A DNA stretch of 59,548 nt from a virus. Its lineage: Duplodnaviria > Caudoviricetes. The stretch's first letter is position 1, and every line of letters starts with the position of its first letter. The stretch is from IMG/VR virus record IMGVR_UViG_3300012926_000005, positions 1-59,548 of that record; one strand, given 5' to 3'. A model generated the notes under the pieces. It was not told the origin of the DNA. It did no database searches and saw only the letters and a program-made list of their open reading frames with translations. Both the position numbers and the translations under genes were made by a program. Shown piece after piece: positions 37,348 to 51,213 of this stretch.

Positions 37348-38031
37348 ATGACCACCAAAATCCTAACGCAGTGCATCCGAGTAGGGGCGATATTCGCGCT
37401 AGTGTGTGTGGGGCTGATGGCGCTTAGTCTCAAGAAGTCAGCCGATGCGCTCACACAGGCAGAAATCGTAGCCAGCGCAGAGCTACGAGAGGCCCATAGT
37501 CTAACGTTGGATGTTCACTATAAGCTAGTCGAGCCAGGGGGATTGCTAGACATCTCCAAGGCTACGATGCTGCACATAGACCGTGCATCAGGGGAGGCTG
37601 CGATAGCCAGCAGGCAGCAGAGGGTCTACTGGGATCAGCTAGGGGCAAGGTCGGTAACGACACTAGCGGCAGCGCAGCACTCGATTGAGACGCTAGACCG
37701 GACGATTGCCAGTATAGGCCAGGACGTACACGGGACAACGCAGGCGGTTGACGGGGTATTAGTCAAGACCGGGGAGTCGGTTGACTCAGTGAATGCCGAT
37801 GTCAGAGCATTAAACGTGATCATCGCTGACCCTGATATAACCGCGTCGATCAAGTCGCTAGCGGAATCAAGTAAACACGTCGAGTTAACTACAGAAAGCG
37901 TGTCACATATCGCGGCGACCATTGACGGACAGGTCAAAAAATTAGCGAACCCTACGAAGGGCGAAAAGGCATTGGGCTGGCTTATGACGGTTTTAAGAGG
38001 GGCTAGCTACACATCTTGGTTATTCAAATAA
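37348..38031 (+). CDS. Membrane-anchored coiled-coil protein
   Basis: N-terminal TM helix; long heptad-like region; amphipathic C-terminus. Confidence 0.6.
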   Translation: MTTKILTQCIRVGAIFALVCVGLMALSLKKSADALTQAEIVASAELREAHSLTLDVHYKLVEPGGLLDISKATMLHIDRASGEAAIASRQQRVYWDQLGARSVTTLAAAQHSIETLDRTIASIGQDVHGTTQAVDGVLVKTGESVDSVNADVRALNVIIADPDITASIKSLAESSKHVELTTESVSHIAATIDGQVKKLANPTKGEKALGWLMTVLRGASYTSWLFK

Positions 38032-38050
38032 AAAGGGAGATACAAAAGGC

Positions 38051-38443
38051 ATGGGCAATTTCTTTAAGGCAATCGGGCATTTTTTTTCATCGCACTTCGG
38101 CCAAGCGCCGTCAGTGCTGCAAAAGGCAGGCTCAATTCTGAGCTACATCGCGCCACTATTGAAGCTGATCTTCGCGCAGGTAGACCCCGGAGACTCGGTT
38201 TTAGTGGCTAACACCATTGCAGAAGTCCAAACCAGCATGGCGACAGCAGCGGCTTTGATTGCAGAGTCACACAGCACAACGGACATAACCGCAAAGGCCA
38301 GAGTTGCAACGGCGCTGAGTGCTGTGGCTAACCACCTTAACGAACTATTGACGGCGGGCCACGTGAAGAACGATTCAATCAAGGCCAGCGTGACGGCGGG
38401 CGTTGAAGAGTTGCAGGCAGTGGTTAAGCAGTTGACTGCCTAG
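38051..38443 (+). CDS. Amphipathic helical protein
   Basis: GGGAG RBS; MGNFFKAIGHFF. Confidence 0.65.
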   Translation: MGNFFKAIGHFFSSHFGQAPSVLQKAGSILSYIAPLLKLIFAQVDPGDSVLVANTIAEVQTSMATAAALIAESHSTTDITAKARVATALSAVANHLNELLTAGHVKNDSIKASVTAGVEELQAVVKQLTA

Positions 38444-38474
38444 AAAGGAGAACCGGAAAAATCGCCAGAGCATG

Positions 38475-38508
38475 AGAGGCAGAGTTTTTAAGCTCTGCCT
38501 CTTGTTTT
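38475..38508. terminator. Terminator at the convergence of rightward and leftward units
   Basis: AGAGGCAGAG-N8-CTCTGCCTCT-TGTTTT; followed immediately by a 14-bp motif copy. Confidence 0.8.
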
Positions 38509-38889
38509 GTCTAACGTTGGACTAGCTAATGCAGCGTACCCCATTACAACGGCCAGGGCGTACAGCTTGACAGGGTTGGGAAAGGTCAGTGCCGGTTATC
38601 TTGCAGTCGGTTCCGGGTTGCGGTGGAGGGGTCAATTTGCCGTGTAACAGCAGAGAGAAAAACAGCACAAAGTAAATCATGGATTCATCCTCAGAGAAAA
38701 ATTGGTTAAAGGGTTAGCAATGTCTGGCCGAAACTATCAGGGCCAGGGCGATAACAAGTAAGATCATTTTGACGCTAAAATCTGCCTTAAACAAGCTCAA
38801 TCCTTTCATTTAAAGTACTGCTAGCAGCGCTAGGTTGACTTATAGGGCGTCCGGGGTAGATTTTAATAGCCGTGTACCCCCGGAACGAT

Positions 38890-39123
38890 CTACGAGCAGG
38901 CCTGAGCTATCTCAGCGCTAGTTAGTGAGAACAGGTCATGGTCACCCATATCTGTTATGGCCATCTCGAAAGTATGTTCTAAGATGAACATAGCCATCAA
39001 GAGTTGATCGTCTCTGAGAGACGGGTATTGTTTACGGAAACGGCTGAGTACAGCAAAGTGGATATCGGCAATAGCTTTCAGTTCTGATACGGGCATAGTG
39101 TCCTCCACAATGCGCCCTGTCAC
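38890..39123 (-). CDS. Hypothetical protein
   Basis: ORF in the leftward operon. Confidence 0.5.
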   Translation of the reverse strand: MTGRIVEDTMPVSELKAIADIHFAVLSRFRKQYPSLRDDQLLMAMFILEHTFEMAITDMGDHDLFSLTSAEIAQACS

Positions 39124-39140
39124 GGCGCACTAGCAAAGCG

Positions 39141-40070
39141 CTAGGCCGCGTCTTCAAACTGAAACTTGCGAGTCGGTTTGTCAACCAAAAGGCCGTCAAT
39201 GGCTGAATTCAACTTCTCAAACTCAGTTCTTACGGAGTCCCTGAGCGGTTCCTGTACCTTTAGGGCGTCTTTGGTGACTCCGTTCATGGCAGATTTGGCA
39301 CGTTCGACCAACAGGGCTAGCTGTAAGTCTGAGCCGATGTTTTTGGAGTCGAATAGCTGGCAGAATTCCTTGACCTTTTCGACTGAAGACGTGTGCAGAA
39401 TCTTTTGCTTGCCGTCCGGCCCTGGTGTCAGCTTGTCAAGGAAGTGACCGAAGAACTGTTTAGCTTCTTCCCGTAAGCTGTAAACGACTTCCGTAGACAG
39501 AGACATGGCAGTCGCAGCGGCCTTTGCCTTTGCTTCTTCGTAGAATTCAGCAGAGACATTTTTCAGGGAGTCCGGGGTGACGAATTCTTTAAACTCCCAA
39601 TAGATGGAGAATTCGGCTTTGAGGGCTTCCTTTGAGACTTGGATGCCGTTAGGCCCTAAGCGAACGCCGGGGTAGTCTTTGGGGTCAAACTCTGCCTTCA
39701 AGTTGCGTTGGTCATTCAGGACGACAGCGGCGTAGGAATCGGCCAAGCGATCTACCAGGGCGTCACGGTCAGCCTGCCAGAGTTTCATGTACTCTTCTAT
39801 GTCCGGTACGGCCTTGTGGCCTACCAGATAGACGCCGGACTTGACAAGGCCGTTGGCTACAGAGTGAGCATACAGCCAGTGCCGTGCATGGCCGTCTCTG
39901 GACTTGATAGCGGCAAGCTGCGGAGACTTGAGAAGGGACTTTGATACGCCGATACGATCAGGATCAGCGTCAATTTCAATGTGGGAAGTGGGAACCTGCC
40001 GGGAAGTGCCGACAGATTTCAGGGACAGCATAAGGCAAACTGCATTTTTAGTTACGTCTACTTGTGGCAT
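39141..40070 (-). CDS. DUF3150-like helical protein
   Basis: G..R, SK.LL, GVYLV, F...DYP, F...NI..D..L..LV pattern; GAGG RBS. Confidence 0.55.
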   Translation of the reverse strand: MPQVDVTKNAVCLMLSLKSVGTSRQVPTSHIEIDADPDRIGVSKSLLKSPQLAAIKSRDGHARHWLYAHSVANGLVKSGVYLVGHKAVPDIEEYMKLWQADRDALVDRLADSYAAVVLNDQRNLKAEFDPKDYPGVRLGPNGIQVSKEALKAEFSIYWEFKEFVTPDSLKNVSAEFYEEAKAKAAATAMSLSTEVVYSLREEAKQFFGHFLDKLTPGPDGKQKILHTSSVEKVKEFCQLFDSKNIGSDLQLALLVERAKSAMNGVTKDALKVQEPLRDSVRTEFEKLNSAIDGLLVDKPTRKFQFEDAA

Positions 40071-40327
40071 GAAAATAACCTCTCTTCAAGAAATTTGATT
40101 TCAGCTTCTAAAGCTTGAGCACGGCTAGGGAATGGCCCTAGAACCGTGTCGTAGTCGATCATGGTGGCAGTCCATTCCATGCCGAAGGTCTGACAGGAGT
40201 TAGAGGGCTCAACGTTGCTTACGCGTCTAACGTTGGACAATCCGGACTCGATCAGGGGAATTAGGGCATCCGAATAGATGCCCGTAATTTTACCGTTGCC
40301 GATCAGTAGTTTGATTTGGCTGCTCAT
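40058..40327 (-). CDS. Small conserved partner of the AAA module
   Basis: 'IYSD......G...VRR.SNVEP....W.A......LGPF..R..AL.AE...L'. Confidence 0.65.
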   Translation of the reverse strand: MSSQIKLLIGNGKITGIYSDALIPLIESGLSNVRRVSNVEPSNSCQTFGMEWTATMIDYDTVLGPFPSRAQALEAEIKFLEERLFSCHK

Positions 40328-40472
40328 AGAATTCCCCTGTAAGTTCGTCGGCAATGGTTTTGCCTAGCTTAGACTCAAGTTCGGCGGTTGAATTGGCACA
40401 TCCGGAACCTTTTACGCCGGATACCTCAACAGTGACTTTGCCTTTGTTTATCGTGATGGTATGGGTTTCCAT
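40290..40472 (-). CDS. DUF2997-like protein
   Basis: ITI..G.V.VEV.GV.G..C...T..LE..LG......LT.EFY. Confidence 0.8.
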   Translation of the reverse strand: METHTITINKGKVTVEVSGVKGSGCANSTAELESKLGKTIADELTGEFYEQPNQTTDRQR

Positions 40473-40473
40473 G

Positions 40474-40866
40474 TTAGCGTGTGGCCGTGAGAACGATCTG
40501 GCCATCCTCCTGTACTGCGGTGGTCACATAGTAACCTTGTGACTGGTAGTGAGAGATGGCGACCTGAGTAGCGTAGGCATCTTGCAGCTTTAGGCCGTCT
40601 CTCCCAATACAGTCCTGCATTGCTTTGCCTTGTGAGCCGTAAAAATCCCACAAGAGGGTATAGCCGTCTTGTGACTGGACTACGCCGACTTCATAGGCAG
40701 AGGGGTTGCCAGCTACGCGGATAGCGTGTGAGCACTTGCCAAGGTGCCGACCGTACCACTGGTAAGTATGTTGGTCACGCACTAACTCTAACCCGAGCGA
40801 CTTGCAGGCTAGCTCTAGCGCGTCAAGGTCTTTCACGATCAATTCAATTGTGGCTACGTGGGACAT
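40474..40866 (-). CDS. DUF1257 / Ycf35-like protein
   Basis: MSH..TI....KDL.AL..A...LG, YEVG, Y.L.WD, L...YA, G.I.L. Confidence 0.8.
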   Translation of the reverse strand: MSHVATIELIVKDLDALELACKSLGLELVRDQHTYQWYGRHLGKCSHAIRVAGNPSAYEVGVVQSQDGYTLLWDFYGSQGKAMQDCIGRDGLKLQDAYATQVAISHYQSQGYYVTTAVQEDGQIVLTATR

Positions 40867-41111
40867 TACTTTTTTCTCCCGAAAAGACGAGCAATGCGAG
40901 AGGCCGCACGGCTGAAAATGTTGGCAGTCTGTTTTGAGGGCTTGGGAGCCACGGTCTTAGGTTGTGCCTTCATAGCCGCGCTAAGAAGCTCGCGAAGCGA
41001 CTTAGAGCGACTGAAGCGACCGCCAGGACGGTTTGACCGTGGGAAGTAGAGATTGACGGACGGAATACTGCAGGACTGCCGACTGTGGCGCAGTTTAGTT
41101 TTGCTTTGCAT
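40866..41111 (-). CDS. Small very basic protein
   Basis: Exactly fills the gap between the AAA stop and the DUF1257 start. Confidence 0.55.
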   Translation of the reverse strand: MQSKTKLRHSRQSCSIPSVNLYFPRSNRPGGRFSRSKSLRELLSAAMKAQPKTVAPKPSKQTANIFSRAASRIARLFGRKK

Positions 41112-42629
41112 TTAGTTTACCTCACTGAGATTGTAAGAACGTGCAACGTTGGACTTGGTTTCAGCCTGTATTTTATACAAGCCGGGTTCGGATGCGGAAA
41201 TGAATTTGCCTTCGGCCTGTTCGCGTAGCCGTGTGATAGTTTCACCAGCGGATACGGCAACCGGAACAACGTAGGTTGCAGCCTCTACCAGAGAACAGCG
41301 AAGGCGGAAAGCAAGGTCGCAGCATTGCTTGATTTCTGCGCCTGTCCATCCGGCATCTTTGGGCAGTTTGTCACCGTCCTTGATCTGGTATTTTTTGGCG
41401 TACAGATTCCAAATAGCTGTACGCTCTGTCTGGTTCGGAAGATCGTAAAAGAACGTGCCAAAGTTGAAGCGTCGGCGCAATTCTGGTTTCAGGGAGTCGA
41501 TGGAATTACAAGTGCCGACAAACAGCGTACGGCCTTGAGAGATAGCCTTGACGATTGCAAGGGCATGGCGAAGGTTTGCACCTGATTCGCCTACTAGGGA
41601 ACCTTTCATTCCCGAGAGGTCAAATTGAATCAGGGGAACGCCGAAGCTACCAGCAGCGGCTTTAGGGATGGCGGTTTTGCCCGCACCTGGGGGGCCTATG
41701 GATAGCATTCCGGTAGCTTGTTCGTCCTGCATCCAAGAAAGCAGTGTGCCGTGCATCTCTTGCGAGACTCCAGACAAATCGCCCTCTGTGCCTGCTAGGG
41801 CCTTTTCTATCTCGTCTAGCAGGACAATGCAGCGAAAAGGATTGTTACCTTCAAAAACCCGCGTCATGAAAGTAATGGCATTGGAGCATCCGCGAATGTC
41901 GGAAAACGTCTCAGAACCACGCCAGACGGACAGGCCAGGGGTTTGTTCTATTTGTGTCCGTTTCCTGTCCCACAAGCCCGCCACGTCAAGCCCTGACGGG
42001 CTTATAGACATGGCTACAGACTGTTCAGTCGGGAACGCAGCTAGCCCGCACGTGGCGTCAATGGCTTGAGAGATAACCGCGTCCGTCAATTCAGGCATCG
42101 ACTTGATTTGTTTTTTGGCTTCTGAGTAGACGCCAGTGATGATCGTCTTCAGTTCGTCCAACGTTGGCAGGGGTTCATCTAAGACCATGAAATCATGTTT
42201 CAGTTCTGCCGGGAGTTTGATGTCATGACAGAGAAAAACCAGAGTGCAGCCCTTGGACTTAAAAACGTCTCGAAGATTCCAAGCTGCTTGAATGAACGGC
42301 GCATCAAAAAACTTATGTGCGTTCATCACGAAAAGAATGGTCAAGTCAGGTAGCTTGATTGCTTCCCCAAGTGCCTGCACTGGATTGCGTACGGTTGACG
42401 GATTTTGACCGTAGGCCGTGCAAGCTGATTTGCTGGCTTGTGAATTGGTAAGGGCTTGAATACCGCGTACACAGTCCCAGGACAATGCAGGCACATCTAA
42501 GTCCTGCACTTTGGAGCACTGCGCCAAAATTGCGGCAATGGTAGCTTGGGGATCAGCGGTTTTGACGGCGACTAACGGGACACTGCGTTCCCGTGCCGAC
42601 TTGAATAACTGCATGAAGGTTTTAGCCAT
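41112..42629 (-). CDS. Ycf46-like AAA+ ATPase with internally swapped Walker B/Walker A blocks
   Basis: Inactive N-terminal AAA-like domain; IVLLDEIEKA, then GPPGAGKT, SLVGES, TCN, LKPELRRRF, FFYDLP, GWTGAEI; AGGAG RBS. Confidence 0.9.
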   Translation of the reverse strand: MAKTFMQLFKSARERSVPLVAVKTADPQATIAAILAQCSKVQDLDVPALSWDCVRGIQALTNSQASKSACTAYGQNPSTVRNPVQALGEAIKLPDLTILFVMNAHKFFDAPFIQAAWNLRDVFKSKGCTLVFLCHDIKLPAELKHDFMVLDEPLPTLDELKTIITGVYSEAKKQIKSMPELTDAVISQAIDATCGLAAFPTEQSVAMSISPSGLDVAGLWDRKRTQIEQTPGLSVWRGSETFSDIRGCSNAITFMTRVFEGNNPFRCIVLLDEIEKALAGTEGDLSGVSQEMHGTLLSWMQDEQATGMLSIGPPGAGKTAIPKAAAGSFGVPLIQFDLSGMKGSLVGESGANLRHALAIVKAISQGRTLFVGTCNSIDSLKPELRRRFNFGTFFYDLPNQTERTAIWNLYAKKYQIKDGDKLPKDAGWTGAEIKQCCDLAFRLRCSLVEAATYVVPVAVSAGETITRLREQAEGKFISASEPGLYKIQAETKSNVARSYNLSEVN

Positions 42630-42760
42630 AGAATCTCCTGAAAGTTGTCCAACGTTAGACTACTGTGCAAGTCTGAGAAGCAACGGCAAAACGCCGTAAG
42701 CCGCGAGTAAAGCAAGTGTCCAGACGGCGATAGAAGCAAGGGAAGAGACGAAACGGCGCA

Positions 42761-43033
42761 TTAGTTAACCTCTCTGGAAATCTCACCTAAAAACAGGGCT
42801 GTAGCTTCATAGGTCATAATGATTGGTTCGCCATCGCCTTCGCCTATGAGAGCGAGGAGACAGGACGCATGGAAGTTTGCGGCCACGATGCAAACGGACT
42901 CAGGCAGGTAGGCAAAGCGAAACAGCGGAATTTCACGTTTCGCCGTGGCAAGCGTAGGTAGAGCGGCAATGGGATCAGTGTTAAGCATGGGGAGTCCTAC
43001 GTCTGTACTCATCCATGATTGCGCGATAGACAA
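42761..43033 (-). CDS. Hypothetical protein
   Basis: ORF in the leftward operon; start uncertain. Confidence 0.4.
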   Translation of the reverse strand: MSIAQSWMSTDVGLPMLNTDPIAALPTLATAKREIPLFRFAYLPESVCIVAANFHASCLLALIGEGDGEPIIMTYEATALFLGEISREVN

Positions 43034-43160
43034 AGTTACGTGTGCCTACGTACCAGCGCCAGTTTTCAGCAATGTCTAGCTCTAGCAGTTCGATAGCTCG
43101 CTTGACTGTCAGGTAAGGCATGGTGTCCTCAATTACGGCCAATAGCCGTGTGAAATGATG

Positions 43161-43517
43161 TTACTGATTACAGGTACAAATCTCTCTAGGGGAACGGTCG
43201 TTTAGCTCGATACAGGACGCTGTGTGCATACTGCCGTAGTGCTGACAAGGTGCATGGCCGATGAACGGATCACCAACTAGTACATACAAGGCAGAGGCGT
43301 AAGCGAAGGGTTCTAGGAGTTTGCCGTTACCGATTTGTCGTATAACAAGAGGCAGTCCAGAGCGTTCAATGGCATGAGATAAGAGCAAGAGGCCACCATG
43401 GAATTCAATGTAAGGGATTTCACCGCGCATTACTATCTGTCCGTAGCGGTGAGTAACAGGAATGAGGGAAACGCCTTTCGCCGTGTGTGAAACAGGTGTT
43501 GACTTTGATTGTGTCAT
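43161..43517 (-). CDS. Hypothetical protein
   Basis: AGGAG RBS before MTQSK. Confidence 0.5.
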   Translation of the reverse strand: MTQSKSTPVSHTAKGVSLIPVTHRYGQIVMRGEIPYIEFHGGLLLLSHAIERSGLPLVIRQIGNGKLLEPFAYASALYVLVGDPFIGHAPCQHYGSMHTASCIELNDRSPREICTCNQ

Positions 43518-43936
43518 AAGGACTCCTGAGAGTAGAGATGGCAAGAGGCTAAGTGATGCTGCCCTTTAGTGGATTGTGCTTTAGGTGTTATTGCATGACA
43601 AGTGCAAGTTTGGACTGAGGGGTTAGAGGAAGAGAGGGGAAGGGTTTGCAGGGAAGCAACGTAGTGAGCATTCATGCTCTTAGCTTTAGAGTGAGCGTGA
43701 GCCTTACCATTGCAGTTAAAATCTGCATTTGTATCGCGGTCATAGACAAACCAACGGCCTTTCTCGCGTATTGCAATGTAGCGCGTGATATGACTTACAG
43801 CGTGTTCGCCTACTACAAATATGCTGTTATGCCGAAAACGGCACTGTGAGCACTTGTGTCTTCCCTGTGGATTGTGCTTAGGCTCTGTGGGCTGAGAGGA
43901 GTTACTTCCCTGCCCGTGCTTAACTTGTTCTGCCAT
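43514..43936 (-). CDS. First gene of the leftward operon, C2H2-like zinc finger
   Basis: GAGGTG RBS; CSQC...H...H. Confidence 0.6.
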   Translation of the reverse strand: MAEQVKHGQGSNSSQPTEPKHNPQGRHKCSQCRFRHNSIFVVGEHAVSHITRYIAIREKGRWFVYDRDTNADFNCNGKAHAHSKAKSMNAHYVASLQTLPLSSSNPSVQTCTCHAITPKAQSTKGQHHLASCHLYSQESL

Positions 43937-43954
43937 GAATCACCTCAGGAGAAG

Positions 43955-43982
43955 AGAATAGCAGATTGATAAATGCAGTCAA
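43955..43982 (-). promoter_or_regulatory. Leftward promoter with TTGATAAAT box in the spacer
   Basis: Minus strand TTGACT-N16-TATTCT. Confidence 0.65.
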
Positions 43983-44098
43983 GCATAAAACGAGTTCTGA
44001 GCATAGAAAAGATACTTAGAAAAGATTACACAGTGAGACGACACCGGAGTGAGCGCAGCGAGCGGAGGTCTGGTAGGATAGCTGAGAGGTTAAGGGTT

Positions 44099-44506
44099 AT
44101 GGGAGAGGGGCTAAGAGAGGTTTGGGTATGTCAGATATGCGGCTATGAATGGCTGAAGAGTCGACAGAGGCATAGCGGCGAACGGCCTAAGCGGTGCGCT
44201 TCGGGGAAGTGTCGGAGTTCGTTATGGGACAGGGCGCGACGGTCTAACGTTGGACGGCCTGACAGGAGTGTGGTTAAGGCTAAGGGGCATCTGCCTACTC
44301 TCACGGCTAACGGAGAGCATAGCGGGCTTTGTAGCTGTCTGGTGTGCCTGTGGGCGATAGCAGGGTCACAGGGGGCCACGAAAGGGAGGACAGGGGTAAC
44401 GAAAGGCAGAGGGGGCCAGGAGGAGGGGGTATCTGTTCGCCCGTCTGTTTCGCCCGTCTCTTCTCATGTCGCTTCCGGTGTCGTGTCCGACAGGTTGTCC
44501 GTGTAG
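44099..44506 (+). CDS. Zinc-ribbon protein
   Basis: W.CQICGYEW...PKRC...CRS..WD; H...C.C..C. Confidence 0.7.
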   Translation: MGEGLREVWVCQICGYEWLKSRQRHSGERPKRCASGKCRSSLWDRARRSNVGRPDRSVVKAKGHLPTLTANGEHSGLCSCLVCLWAIAGSQGATKGRTGVTKGRGGQEEGVSVRPSVSPVSSHVASGVVSDRLSV

Positions 44507-44784
44507 GGGTGAGCGGCGGGAGGGGGATAATACTTTGCTACCGAGAAAATTTTGCTGTTATTTCTTTTTTCAGTGTTGGAGTTCTTTGCAGATTGGACTC
44601 CATATTCACTTAATGCAGCGGAACATTGAAATTCATGTGCCATTTGGTTTTTTGAGAATAGGGTGGTACTTGGACTGTGAAGATGAGAGAAACGAGATTT
44701 ACGGTAAGAGTTACGGTTGGGACGATGGCATTTGGGAGTGGGGCGTAAGTACGGAGGACTACCAGGGGGAAGAAGAAGCTGAGC

Positions 44785-48425: not shown

Positions 48426-49022
48426 ATGCCCACAATCCCCCAAAAGATGATGGCTTGCCGCAAGCTGGGCCTAACTGACAGTTTCGAGCCGACTGCAAAA
48501 ATATCCCACATCTTCGAGAAGATAAGCCTAGGCGAAGTAATTTCTTGTCTGCGGACTTCACAGGACGAAAACGCGATGATGATATGCGCGATGTTCGATA
48601 GGCTTAATGCTTCACAGGCAAAAGCTATTGACATAGACTATTTGGCGGCAGCGGCCCACTGCAAAGACGTGTACAAAATCGCGGGATTAATCACGGAGAC
48701 TTACACGCGAGTCAAGGGGATGGAAACGGCGATGAGGGCCGCGCAAGAGTCGCCGGGGATTATGAAGTCGGTGACACGTCATGCTAAGGGCAAAGACGGC
48801 TTTCATCATGCCAAATTGGTTTTGCAGACGACAGGAGTAGCGCCGACGCCGAAGAATAACACTAACGTTTTCATTGGCAACAAGATCGACAATAGTAAGC
48901 ACCAAACGAACGTTGTGGCTACGCACTCTCAGACCGTCGATGAAGTTGGTGATATTCTCTCCAAATTGACAGTTCCTAAGGCTCTCGATGTTCCACCGTC
49001 AAGTCATAGCACGGAAGACTGA
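48426..49022 (+). CDS. Putative terminase small subunit
   Basis: Immediately upstream of and overlapping TerL; helical with a C-terminal N/T-rich strand. Confidence 0.55.
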   Translation: MPTIPQKMMACRKLGLTDSFEPTAKISHIFEKISLGEVISCLRTSQDENAMMICAMFDRLNASQAKAIDIDYLAAAAHCKDVYKIAGLITETYTRVKGMETAMRAAQESPGIMKSVTRHAKGKDGFHHAKLVLQTTGVAPTPKNNTNVFIGNKIDNSKHQTNVVATHSQTVDEVGDILSKLTVPKALDVPPSSHSTED

Positions 49023-51213
49023 GGCTATCGAGAAAGCCAAGAATATCAAGCTGCGGGAAAACTCCGTAGAGGAGTGCATTACTCTTTACGATCACTTCAA
49101 GTCAATGGAAGTGATGGAGTCTAAACATCCGGTTTACTGCCGTAAGGGCGAATCTCCTAAAGACTTCAAGTTTACAGAGCAGGAATCAGCATGGATCAGA
49201 AATGAAATGCTGATGTGTGCTTGTTCGTTCCCGTATTGGTTCTTTCGCTACTTCTTTGTAAAATCAACAATCAAGAAAGACGGTAAGGTAGTCAGTGAAA
49301 ACATTCGCCGTCCAGACGTGTGGATAGCGCAGTTAATCTACTTGGAAATTCTGGCCGAGCTAGACTTGCGCGGTCTACCGATTTTGCTACTGGCGTTGAA
49401 AGCAAGACAACTCGGGATTTCGACGGTCACAGAAGCAATTATTCAGTGGATGGCCATATTCACTAAAGGTTCGCACTGCGTAGTAGCTTCGTCCGAAACA
49501 GAGAAGTCGGAAGAAATGGCCAACATGATTTGGCTGGGGCTTGACATGATGCCCTTGTGGATGAAGCCAGTTCTGACAAGAGAGGACAGGAAGATTGGGC
49601 CGGAGTTCGGGCTAATTCACTCAGACATTGTTTTGCAGCACGGCTCTCAGATGAAGGGTATTGCCACCGGATCGACGCCGATAGCTGCGCACCTGTCGGA
49701 AGTCGCCTATTACCCGAATCCGATTGAAACAATCGAACGTTCTTTGATTCGCGCCATGCACGAAAACCCAAGGACGTTTTTAGTTCTGGAGTCCACGGCA
49801 CGGAAAAAAGATGATTGGTTTCATAAAACTTGGGTCAAGAACCGAAAGGGCGAACAAGAGGGATACAATCGTTTTACGTGTATGTTCCTTCCCTGGTATG
49901 TCGGCAGAGACATATATCCGACTCCAGACTTCCTTTTAAGCCATCCTATACCCCAAGGGTGGCGACCCATGAAAGAGACGCTTAAACAGGCGCTAGATGC
50001 CAAGCTATACGTGTCTACGACGCCTCTGCTTAAGAAGCACATGCCCGACAATTGGGAAATGCCGATTGAGCAGATGTGGTTTTGGGAATTCAATTACCAC
50101 GAGGCGATGGAAGGCGGCGACGAAACTCTGAAGGCGTTCATGTCAGAGCTTGCGGCGGATGAAAGGTCTTGTTTCCAGTCTAAGCGTTGGTCAGTATTCG
50201 CTCAAGGTGTGCTAGATAAACTAGAGGCAGAAATCAGCGACAAGTACCAAGACTATGCCATGATCGGTGACGGCATAGATGAGCGGTTTGCGCTGAAAGA
50301 CTTTCAGTCACATTCGCACAAACGGATAGACATTGAGTGGGCCACGATTGACGGGAAAAACCTGTACTGGAAATTAATTCCGCTGAAAGAGACGCCGCGA
50401 GACGAGAAGCTAGATTTCTACTTGAGAGTATGGGAGAAACCTAAACCGGGGTATAAATATACAATCGGAATAGACATTGCTTCCGGCCAGGGGCAGAACC
50501 GGACAGTATATTTTGTCAACCGCATCGGCAAAGAAGGGGAGCCAGACCGGGAAGTAGCTTTACTGTGTTCGGCGTGGATAGCTTCACCGGAGAGTCCAGC
50601 GTTTGCTAACCTTCTGGGAATCTGGTATGGGCAGTACATGGGCGCTATGAGTCCGTATGTCGCGGAAGCACAGTTATCGCCGGAAGTTCAGAAAGCCGTA
50701 GGAGACTTTATCTCTTTCCAGCTTTCCAAGCTAGGCTACACAAACTTCTACTACATGCAGCGCTTTGATATTCGCAGGCATCCCGGCCAGAAGGGAACAC
50801 GACGCGGCTGGGCAACAATGGGATGGTCACGGCAGATGATGATGGAAGCCTTTGAGCACGCGATCAAGGCCGGATGGATCGAAGTCAATTCGCAAGAGCT
50901 AATAGACGAACTTGGGAGCCTAGAGTCTGACGTTACTGAGGGCGATAAGACGTTCTACGATCACTCTTCCGAAGGAACCGACGATGTATACATGGCGGGC
51001 GGAATTGCGTACTTTACTTCTCACGACAATCAGACTATTATGGAGCGGATGAAGGGCGCTGCCGCACCAAAAAAGAGAAAACGCGACGAAGATGCCCCTA
51101 AGCCAGAGAGAGAATCGGGCATTTCGCAATTGAGTCGCAAGTTTATGTTTGAAGACACGATGAACAAAGATTTTGCCGGAGAGGTAGAGGGGGGCGGCGG
51201 GCATGTCTACTAG
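48988..51213 (+). CDS. terL: Terminase large subunit
   Basis: LKARQLGIST (Walker A), HLSEVAY (Walker B), LESTA (coupling), IGIDIA.G and DDVYMA (RNase H-like nuclease). Confidence 0.95.
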   Translation: MFHRQVIARKTEAIEKAKNIKLRENSVEECITLYDHFKSMEVMESKHPVYCRKGESPKDFKFTEQESAWIRNEMLMCACSFPYWFFRYFFVKSTIKKDGKVVSENIRRPDVWIAQLIYLEILAELDLRGLPILLLALKARQLGISTVTEAIIQWMAIFTKGSHCVVASSETEKSEEMANMIWLGLDMMPLWMKPVLTREDRKIGPEFGLIHSDIVLQHGSQMKGIATGSTPIAAHLSEVAYYPNPIETIERSLIRAMHENPRTFLVLESTARKKDDWFHKTWVKNRKGEQEGYNRFTCMFLPWYVGRDIYPTPDFLLSHPIPQGWRPMKETLKQALDAKLYVSTTPLLKKHMPDNWEMPIEQMWFWEFNYHEAMEGGDETLKAFMSELAADERSCFQSKRWSVFAQGVLDKLEAEISDKYQDYAMIGDGIDERFALKDFQSHSHKRIDIEWATIDGKNLYWKLIPLKETPRDEKLDFYLRVWEKPKPGYKYTIGIDIASGQGQNRTVYFVNRIGKEGEPDREVALLCSAWIASPESPAFANLLGIWYGQYMGAMSPYVAEAQLSPEVQKAVGDFISFQLSKLGYTNFYYMQRFDIRRHPGQKGTRRGWATMGWSRQMMMEAFEHAIKAGWIEVNSQELIDELGSLESDVTEGDKTFYDHSSEGTDDVYMAGGIAYFTSHDNQTIMERMKGAAAPKKRKRDEDAPKPERESGISQLSRKFMFEDTMNKDFAGEVEGGGGHVY

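Follow-up and report, generated by a model that had tools for sequence, protein, structure and literature searches.

The window analysed here is a stretch of 59,548 nucleotides comprising positions 1 to 59,548 of the IMG/VR virus record IMGVR_UViG_3300012926_000005 (Duplodnaviria; Caudoviricetes), a genome estimated by CheckV to be 94% complete. On its minus strand the window encodes a Ycf46-like AAA+ ATPase (P0001), in which the segment that carries Walker B lies ahead of the one that carries Walker A. The gene starts with an ATG at position 42629, and an AGGAG sequence is found 6 nt before this ATG. The gene and the parts of its product are as follows (DSSP, the secondary-structure assignment program, was applied to the AlphaFold2 (AF2) prediction; couplings are those of the coevolution analysis described below).

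41112..42629, minus strand: gene for the Ycf46-like AAA+ ATPase with a permuted core; 505 aa, stop codon included in the coordinates
41946..42629, minus strand: N-terminal non-catalytic α/β domain, residues 1-228 (aligns colinearly with the corresponding domain of canonical Ycf46-like proteins; hhalign probability 100, AF2 secondary structure)
41844..41945, minus strand: linker and helix α0 (FSDIRG; helix 249-260), residues 229-262 (AF2 DSSP; α0-α1 couplings, e.g., C248-G317 and I245-A320)
41715..41843, minus strand: block C, residues 263-305, with β3 and Walker B (IVLLDE, D272/E273), the pore-loop-2 region and α3, upstream of the P-loop (homology; couplings to β4, α2 and pore loop 1; strand 267-271, helix 287-302)
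41532..41714, minus strand: block B, residues 306-366, with β1, the P-loop/Walker A (GPPGAGKT, K318), α1, β2, pore loop 1 (L345-V346-G347) and α2 (profile matches, conservation, DSSP)
41436..41531, minus strand: block D, residues 367-398, with β4 and sensor 1 (N375), α4 with R385-R387, and β5 (profile matches, conservation)
41115..41435, minus strand: C-terminal helical lid, residues 399-505, with a GWTGAEI motif (profile matches, AF2; column counts among 411 family members: G430 in 402/411, A431 in 369/411, E432 in 382/411)

The motifs of P0001 come in the order FSDIRG (residues 242-247), CIVLLDEIEK (267-276), GTLLSWMQD (294-302), GPPGAGKT (312-319), SLVGES (344-349), FVGTCN (370-375) and PELRRRF (382-388), i.e., α0, Walker B, α3, Walker A, pore loop, sensor 1 and Arg fingers. 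A preliminary description of this DNA, made from its letters alone, had placed the Walker B block ahead of Walker A. The translation gives this order in a frame open over 505 aa, and the nucleotide ranges named there, 41828-41811 and 41696-41673, encode I268-E273 (Walker B) and G312-T319 (Walker A), respectively. The P0001 translation contains no second hhhhDE motif (h, hydrophobic residue) 3′ of the P-loop, and the gap between the end of α2 and the sensor-1 strand amounts to ca. 4 residues. The features of a classical AAA protein, namely a P-loop GxxGxGK(S/T), a Walker B hhhhDE, sensor 1 with the arginines and pore loop 1, are present in P0001; the classical chain order β1-α1-β2-α2-β3-α3-β4-α4-β5 is not the one found, as judged by DSSP and profile matches.

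Homology of the Moved Block to Canonical AAA Cores

Canonical Ycf46-like ATPases of phages and plasmids (phrog_8638) share with P0001 a homologous N-domain (ca. 230 aa), α0, all core blocks and the lid. They differ from it in the order of their Walker A and Walker B blocks, which is the reverse of that in P0001, and profiles match them in one stretch, whereas permuted proteins are matched in fragments. One such protein is gp65 of Aeromonas phage HJ05 (P0273), whose motifs run in the canonical order DIGG, GPPGTGKS, SLVGSSE, LVDEVDK, LTFMQE, VTAN, PELLRKGR, and which matches Pfam AAA in a single stretch (294-421 to profile positions 1-129). Alignment of P0001 with gp65 by blastp is colinear and contains a 39-residue gap exactly at the gp65 Walker B block. 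Residues 260-305 of P0001, aligned on their own, match this block with a score of 74, compared with 27±4.2 for shuffled sequences (0 of 2000 reach 74), and an index-only swap of the two blocks raises the local score against gp65 from 188 to 289. A closer relative, also of canonical order, is the protein WDT73634.1 (P0405) encoded by the Ca. Manganitrophus plasmid CP114554 (28% identity over 93% of the query). In this case, residues 263-305 of P0001 score 93 against the Walker B block (26.6±4.3 for shuffled sequences, 0 of 2000), and the index-only swap increases the local score from 431 to 585, with per-block identities of 30, 37, 41 and 40%.

When the permuted and canonical families were compared by hhalign, a colinear alignment (probability 100, E 1e-45) left both Walker B blocks unmatched, and a second alignment joined these two blocks to each other (probability 97.6, E 4e-12). 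The colinear alignment was reproduced by a second hhalign implementation (query 2-486, including the whole N-domain, probability 100). The phrog_8638 profile matches canonical P0273 in one stretch (6-532 to 16-552, E 5.5e-138), P0001 in four (E 5.4e-43) and the permuted protein P0009 in two.

Comparison with more distant AAA proteins was carried out with profiles and solved structures. Pfam AAA (PF00004) matches P0001 in three broken stretches, the best of which pairs residues 308-362 with profile positions 1-55, and a weak AAA_2 match puts residues 266-281 on the Walker B part of the AAA_2 profile. Phmmer aligns residues 304-361 with p97 38-95 and residues 366-439 with p97 140-218, and skips the p97 segment that contains Walker B and α3 (96-139). 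With a profile built from 121 family members, segments 255-307, 310-355 and 355-435 of Cdc48 (6chs) correspond to profile positions 297-349, 253-298 and 357-431, respectively, and the second AAA domain (D2) of Cdc48 repeats this out-of-order pattern. The E-values of such matches reach down to 4.7e-23; no colinear match to the family profile was found among the solved structures searched. Scans with NCBIfam and PADLOC, which cover named families and defence systems, yielded only partial IetA/IteA matches on the P-loop block.

Alignment to AAA profiles and structures, as had been proposed, thus returned matches out of order, including the Cdc48 pattern and the two hhalign alignments. The claim of the preliminary description that two internal β-α blocks are swapped, with motifs and reading frame intact, is in agreement with both the canonical relatives and the profiles. 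Judged by these alignments, the swapped blocks are β1-α1-β2-α2 and β3-α3, which are adjacent in canonical relatives. Their exchange explains the fragmentary matches of the family to Pfam and PHROGs profiles.

Conservation of the Motif Order

A word-index search, in which 8000 proteins were scored, retrieved 1231 proteins at E ≤ 1e-3, and the best 120 of them were 449-601 aa long and 48-94% identical. In an alignment of 121 sequences (A2), Walker B precedes Walker A in 121/121. We further collected 411 distinct sequences (430-620 aa) from A2, the 150 best matches of a whole-library search and the genes of 160 loci; by alignment columns, the order is the same in 411/411, so that the homologues of like order that the preliminary description had called for do exist. 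Of the 7254 matches that the whole-library search gave at E ≤ 1e-3, 3566 reached 1e-10 and 1196 reached 1e-30, the last figure referring to representatives of clusters at 50% identity, with the order examined in the 411 distinct sequences only. Among the best 150 of these matches, 137 align in one stretch and 13 in two, the latter including intein-bearing and otherwise longer members.

The residues expected at a catalytic site are kept throughout. E273, K318, G315, G347, N375 and R387 are present in 411/411 sequences; position 272 is D in 406/411 and E in 5/411, and position 319 is S in 373/411 and T in 38/411. The remaining arginines and pore-loop residues are somewhat more variable (R386 in 384/411, R385 in 335/411, V346 in 386/411, L345 in 337/411). 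The junctions between the blocks are of constant length: 12 residues (256-267) in 383/411, 11 residues (299-309) in 405/411, and a constant third junction in 388/411.

The record is derived from a metagenome, and the Walker B segment could have been misplaced in a chimeric contig, by a local rearrangement or through faulty gene calling; misassembly was one of the outcomes against which the preliminary description had warned. A separately assembled Logan contig of 13033 bases covers positions 40800-42900 with 0 differences and no joints, and the frame it contains is open and preceded by a ribosome-binding site. The sequencing run behind this contig is the only one to cover the full stretch; it may be the source sample and hence not independent. 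No RNA run was listed for the gene. Other runs contain only short pieces of relatives, in whose contigs 33 of the 39 in-gene differences listed fall at third codon positions. The order is common to 411/411 distinct sequences from many contigs, metagenome-assembled genomes (MAGs) and one cultured phage genome. Misassembly is refuted in practice, and the chance that an artefact created the order is practically negligible. As read from the alignments, the order is a trait of a large family.

Coevolution and Structure Prediction

Mean-field direct coupling analysis (DCA) was performed on the 411 sequences, with an effective number of sequences (Meff) of 257 for region 225-425 and 304 for region 1-490, and the top 200 couplings at a separation of at least 6 were considered. 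Block C (263-305) has 23 of these couplings with block B (306-366), 10 with block D (367-400), 8 with the lid and 3 with the N-domain (225 residues). In the analysis of the core region, the strongest coupling, C267-S364, connects the beginning of β3 with the end of α2, two points that are covalent neighbours in canonical proteins. The Walker B strand is coupled to the sensor-1 strand through V269-F370, L271-F370, V269-T368, I268-T368 and I274-G372. Residues E291, S289 and M292 couple to S339, K342 and G350, which puts the pore-loop-2 region beside pore loop 1. The strongest strand pairs, β3-β4 (2.04), β1-β5 (2.01) and β1-β4 (1.12), are three of the four adjacencies of a 5-1-4-3-2 sheet.

An AF2 prediction on A2 had a mean predicted local distance difference test (pLDDT) value of 92.8 and a predicted template modelling (pTM) score of 0.86, and block C scored 96, 86, 75 and 95 per ten residues. 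According to DSSP, the first half of the core consists of helix 249-260, strand 267-271, helix 287-302, strand 306-311 and helix 320-329, and the second half of strand 333-336, helix 346-364, strand 368-374, helix 382-387 and strand 391-394. The ESM Atlas model (pTM 0.68) resembles canonical clusters named ycf46 with template modelling (TM) scores of 0.74-0.81. On the evidence of coevolution, the moved Walker B strand lies next to β4, inside the C-terminal core and not in the N-domain. In three dimensions, the protein most likely adopts the usual AAA+ fold, whose sheet order is 5-1-4-3-2.

The coupling counts also bear on whether the DEIEK segment ahead of the P-loop is part of another domain, the second outcome foreseen in the preliminary description. 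If it were part of the N-terminal domain or of a separate subdomain, the AAA core would lack a Walker B strand and the protein would be a pseudo-ATPase or a nucleotide binder only. This was not found: 33 of the top 200 couplings connect block C to blocks B and D of the C-terminal core versus 3 to the 225-residue N-domain, and β3-β4 is the strongest strand pair. One may point to the strands and helices of the AF2 N-domain, which follow each other much as in an AAA domain, to the degenerate first domains known in two-ring AAA proteins, and to the fact that the best single Pfam AAA stretch spans only 308-362. However, the N-domain is complete and colinear with the canonical N-domain without block C, its hhalign match to the AAA module is not significant (probability 0.6-34%), and the segment has kept D272 in 406/411 and E273 in 411/411 sequences. 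Moreover, since only ca. 4 residues lead from α2 to β4, the central strand would otherwise be missing. We consider an origin of the segment in another domain to be extremely improbable.

The N-domain itself (41946-42629, residues 1-228) has AF2 strands 19-23, 48-52, 98-102, 129-134 and 148-151, followed by a helical part, and some of its motifs resemble a degenerate Walker B, sensor 1 and β5. An alignment suggests that it may be a degenerate AAA domain, which, with the same hhalign probabilities of 0.6-34%, is no more than a lead.

Our preferred reading is that P0001 is a two-domain Ycf46-like classical AAA+ ATPase with two adjacent core segments exchanged, and we assign to it a probability of roughly 0.85. 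Several points speak against it. The best DCA score of β3-β2 is 0.64, similar to that of non-adjacent pairs, and at a Meff near 300 some of the top couplings are false. The AF2 evidence consists of confidence values and secondary structure, and the sheet order thus comes from coevolution and known AAA+ topology; coevolution and AF2, moreover, draw on the same alignment family. A regular-expression screen of the 411 sequences assigned the permuted order to 344, left 64 unmatched and scored 3 as having Walker B after Walker A, and alignment columns were relied on instead; in the one "after" sequence inspected (P0074), the Walker A match was spurious. On A2, the regular expressions flagged two sequences of opposite order and one without Walker A, and by eye all three are permuted. 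ATP hydrolysis and ring formation are predictions from the sequence. Finally, DCA is blind to the difference between intra-chain and inter-protomer contacts.

The last point leaves room for a 3D domain swap, in which β3-α3 would complete the sheet of a neighbouring protomer and the chain order would reflect an oligomer that is necessarily intertwined, not a rewired monomeric fold. In favour of this reading, AAA+ proteins form oligomers whose active sites lie at the interfaces. AF2, on the other hand, folds the monomer with a pLDDT of 92.8 and a pTM of 0.86, and in the established canonical topology the strand starts that the new loops would reach are neighbours. The loops flanking block C are short and fixed (12 residues in 383/411, 11 residues in 405/411), which makes an excursion to another protomer unlikely. 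A swap between protomers is in our view very improbable.

Topology and Putative Activity

In the canonical chain, the elements follow each other as α0, β1 (P-loop), α1, β2, pore loop 1, α2, β3 (Walker B), α3, β4 (sensor 1), α4 (Arg fingers) and β5. In P0001, the succession is α0, β3 (Walker B), α3, β1 (P-loop), α1, β2, pore loop 1, α2, β4, α4 and β5. This permutation is non-circular for the domain or, put differently, a circular permutation of the internal segment from β1 to α3. It would require new connections from α0 to β3, from α3 to β1 and from α2 to β4. Since each of them would end on a strand one or two positions away from the original target, short loops should suffice, and the rewiring would be geometrically cheap, with loops that are short and of fixed length. 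β3 would be inserted in cis.

P0001 has every element of a classical AAA active site and pore, and these elements are under selection. In the catalytic cycle, K318/T319 would bind ATP, D272/E273 would hold Mg2+ and activate water, N375 would sense the γ-phosphate and R385-R387 would act in trans within the ring. The L-V-G pore loops may pull on the substrate, which the ATP-driven ring would thread or remodel. Our best guess for the biological role is a substrate-remodelling motor of the phage early/replication region that may act with or on the small DUF proteins encoded nearby.

Inteins typically insert at sites that the host cannot lose. In members of the family located outside the window (P0122, P0254, P0215, P0234, P0393 and P0394), inteins interrupt sensor 1 between T373 and C374 (ca. 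400 aa), the P-loop between K318 and the following S (339 aa) and the lid between Q435 and C436 (247 aa). The inserts begin with C and end with HN, and precomputed Pfam assignments include Intein_splicing and homing-endonuclease domains. From the invariant catalytic residues and the inteins at catalytic sites, and from these only, it is reasonable to infer that the ATPase is probably still active. We also infer a ring-shaped oligomer that would hydrolyse ATP. The permutation is very probably compatible with a normal AAA+ fold and activity.

Origin of the Permutation

Trees were built from N-domain columns only, with random samples drawn from 411 permuted and 119 canonical sequences. A single branch with a support of 100 divides permuted from canonical proteins, both with FastTree (40 vs 40) and in the quick mode of IQ-TREE (25 vs 25). 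This looks like a single event in the phage/mobile-element lineage of Ycf46-like ATPases; a single origin is made less secure by the narrow sampling of the canonical side, which consists of the top matches of two queries. The permutation is ancient within its family. The likeliest route would start from a duplicated internal segment, the outer halves of which were then lost. No evolutionary intermediates with relic segments were found, the core insertions among members of at least 532 aa being inteins only. A search for longer forms gave 7 matches, comprising 3 intein-bearing members and 4 weak eukaryotic AAA proteins, and no fusions. Apparent AAA-DUF1257 fusions in three loci of high G+C content (high GC) were rejected as frame artefacts, the DUF1257 part beginning at its own Met.

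Genomic Neighborhood and Hosts

The ATPase gene is located within a minus-strand cassette (39141-43936), which is the sole long minus-strand block of the window; the rest of the genome is on the plus strand. The other features of the cassette that were followed are listed below.

40474..40866, minus strand: DUF1257 protein, 130 aa (Pfam PF06868, E 4.7e-07)
40290..40505, minus strand: DUF2997 protein, 71 aa (Pfam PF11211, E 1.4e-13)
40058..40354, minus strand: 98-aa protein with no Pfam or PHROG match
39141..40070, minus strand: DUF3150-like protein, 309 aa, which accompanies the ATPase in viral loci more constantly than any other neighbour

With the ATPase gene, the DUF1257, DUF2997 and DUF3150-like genes make up a conserved phage module, the three lying downstream of it. 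The 309-aa protein has an ESM Atlas feature score of 0.97, TM scores of 0.80-0.85 to DUF3150 clusters and an E-value of 1e-11 to an NCBI-annotated DUF3150 protein. A search for solved relatives of the DUF1257 protein or the 309-aa protein at E ≤ 1 returned only chance-level rows. Between the ATPase gene and the DUF1257 gene, there is an 81-aa basic open reading frame (ORF; 40866-41111, minus strand), for which neither the 80 viral nor the 80 MAG loci contain a relative and no family was matched; it may not be a gene.

On the plus strand, the large terminase gene is found at 48988-51213, and among the ten largest plus-strand ORFs it is the only one with a PHROG match at E ≤ 1e-5. The phage, which comes from soil, is from a poorly sampled lineage. 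No tRNA genes were detected in the window, an Rfam scan of 38000-44600 gave no matches, and promoter- or terminator-like sites were not above shuffles.

The occurrence of the four neighbours in sets of related loci was as follows.

Permuted viral loci (n = 80, 4 kb flanks): DUF1257 in 60, DUF2997 in 44, 309-aa protein in 74, 98-aa protein in 36
Permuted MAG loci (n = 80, 16 of them shorter than 7 kb): DUF1257 in 62, DUF2997 in 66, 309-aa protein in 62, 98-aa protein in 5
Canonical viral loci (n = 80, 3 kb flanks): DUF1257 in 53, DUF2997 in 57, 309-aa protein in 0, 98-aa protein in 9

As can be seen, canonical Ycf46-like relatives, including that of HJ05, share the DUF1257 and DUF2997 partners with the permuted ones. 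The DUF3150-like neighbour distinguishes the two sets (0/80 canonical viral loci at 3 kb vs 74/80 permuted at 4 kb), though the comparison is soft, the flanks being different. On the Manganitrophus plasmid, the canonical ATPase gene is followed by genes annotated as DUF1257, DUF2997 and DUF3150. In permuted loci, the ATPase gene and its partner genes almost always share a strand.

The sole cultured phage with a member of the family is Tunturiibacter phage Tunturi_3, in which gp103 is permuted (37% identity), gp102 is a DUF1257 protein and gp101 a DUF2997 protein. Its gp96 (locus L082, 8690-9649), annotated as "HNH endonuclease", shares 30% identity with the 309-aa protein (E 5e-40), and no Pfam match supports the endonuclease name.

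MAG matches belong mostly to Acidobacteriota, with others in Nitrospirota and Myxococcota; those from Armatimonadota are the closest to the window protein (52-53%). Several MAGs (loci L084-L163) contain three or four permuted ATPase copies on different contigs, some within contigs of 2-3.6 Mb, which suggests repeated integration of prophages or mobile elements in Acidobacteriota.

Further recurring neighbours were counted for clean clusters only, since elsewhere single linkage chained overlapping frames. A radical-SAM protein (ca. 200 aa; Fer4_12, E 9e-24) adjoins the module in 66 of the 160 permuted loci (e.g., L127 3315-3920, L103, L136 and L140), Sipho_Gp157 is present in 27 and an SNF2-like helicase in 25. 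None of these three is encoded in the cassette of the window.

Significance

As far as the literature was searched, a single, invariant chain topology is ascribed to the core of AAA+ proteins, which are among the best studied molecular machines. No description of Walker B preceding Walker A, or of a permuted AAA+/P-loop core, was found in the literature searched, outside the coverage of which lie ca. 1.7 million PMC articles and the subscription journals. Among papers on AAA+, Walker A/B and permutation, none concerns a Walker B-first AAA order by title or abstract; papers on non-circular permutation and P-loops are unrelated, and those listed for Ycf46 deal mostly with plastid genomes. The main text of the Tunturi phage paper (PMC11924767) does not contain the words "ATPase" or "AAA". 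The databases do not single out the permuted form either. PHROGs contains the canonical family only (phrog_8638), source names of permuted members are "hypothetical protein" or "AAA family ATPase", and the name given by JGI to canonical relatives is "SpoVK/Ycf46/Vps4 family AAA+-type ATPase". ESM Atlas labels the aligned part of P0001 and the ycf46-like clusters PF30482, a Pfam entry that might already describe the permuted form. The permutation is apparently undescribed in the AAA+ literature as far as searched, with some risk that it has already been noted elsewhere.

It seems fairly probable that this is the first case recognised in nature of a non-circular (segment-exchange) permutation in an AAA+/ASCE P-loop core, and that the permutation was fixed once and then carried into a very large family of ATPases of soil phages and prophages, which have stayed catalytically active. 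In that case, folding and catalysis would not require the P-loop and Walker B strands to leave the ribosome in one particular order, and canonical and permuted forms on the same DUF1257/DUF2997/DUF3150 module would constitute a natural matched pair for studies of folding order. The family suggests that an enzyme fold tolerates internal reshuffling of its chain and, with 1196 representatives at E ≤ 1e-30, would amount to a natural experiment on the connectivity that the fold needs. Homology tools that depend on order can hide such variants. Phages of Acidobacteriota, Armatimonadota and other soil bacteria commonly carry the module, and with a cultured phage and host at hand (Tunturi_3 gp103), as well as canonical counterparts that have the same partners, side-by-side biochemistry is feasible.

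Comparison with Known Systems

Three groups of known proteins may be set beside the permuted ATPase. The first comprises p97/VCP/Cdc48, NSF, Rix7 and the proteasomal Rpt subunits. Like the permuted family, they have Walker A, a hydrophobic-hydrophobic-Gly pore loop 1, a Walker B of the form hhhhDE, the sensor 1 Asn, the arginines of the second region of homology and a GxxGAE/D lid motif. In these classical-clade structures, however, the three pieces run B, C, D in the chain, whereas in the family profile they run C, B, D.

The second is cyanobacterial and plastid Ycf46. An ESM Atlas structure search gave a TM score of 0.78 over 428 aligned residues between P0001 and a mostly cyanobacterial cluster. 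According to PMC13683863, the role of cyanobacterial/plastid Ycf46 is tied to stress, CO2 use and KaiC binding, and according to PMC4284462, DUF2997 and DUF1257 (ycf35) are a gene pair in cyanobacteria. These Ycf46 proteins differ from the permuted family in that they carry AAA_lid_3, are named as ordinary AAA proteins and are not phage-linked.

The third is the YlqF/RsgA GTPases, which are circularly permuted P-loop NTPases of the kinase-GTPase division, with an altered motif order and a retained fold. As in the case considered here, a P-loop NTPase has adopted an unusual order of nucleotide-binding motifs and kept its fold. The permutation of YlqF/RsgA is, however, circular, while that of the ATPase in the window is an exchange of two neighbouring internal segments in a member of the ASCE division, with the ends of the domain unchanged.

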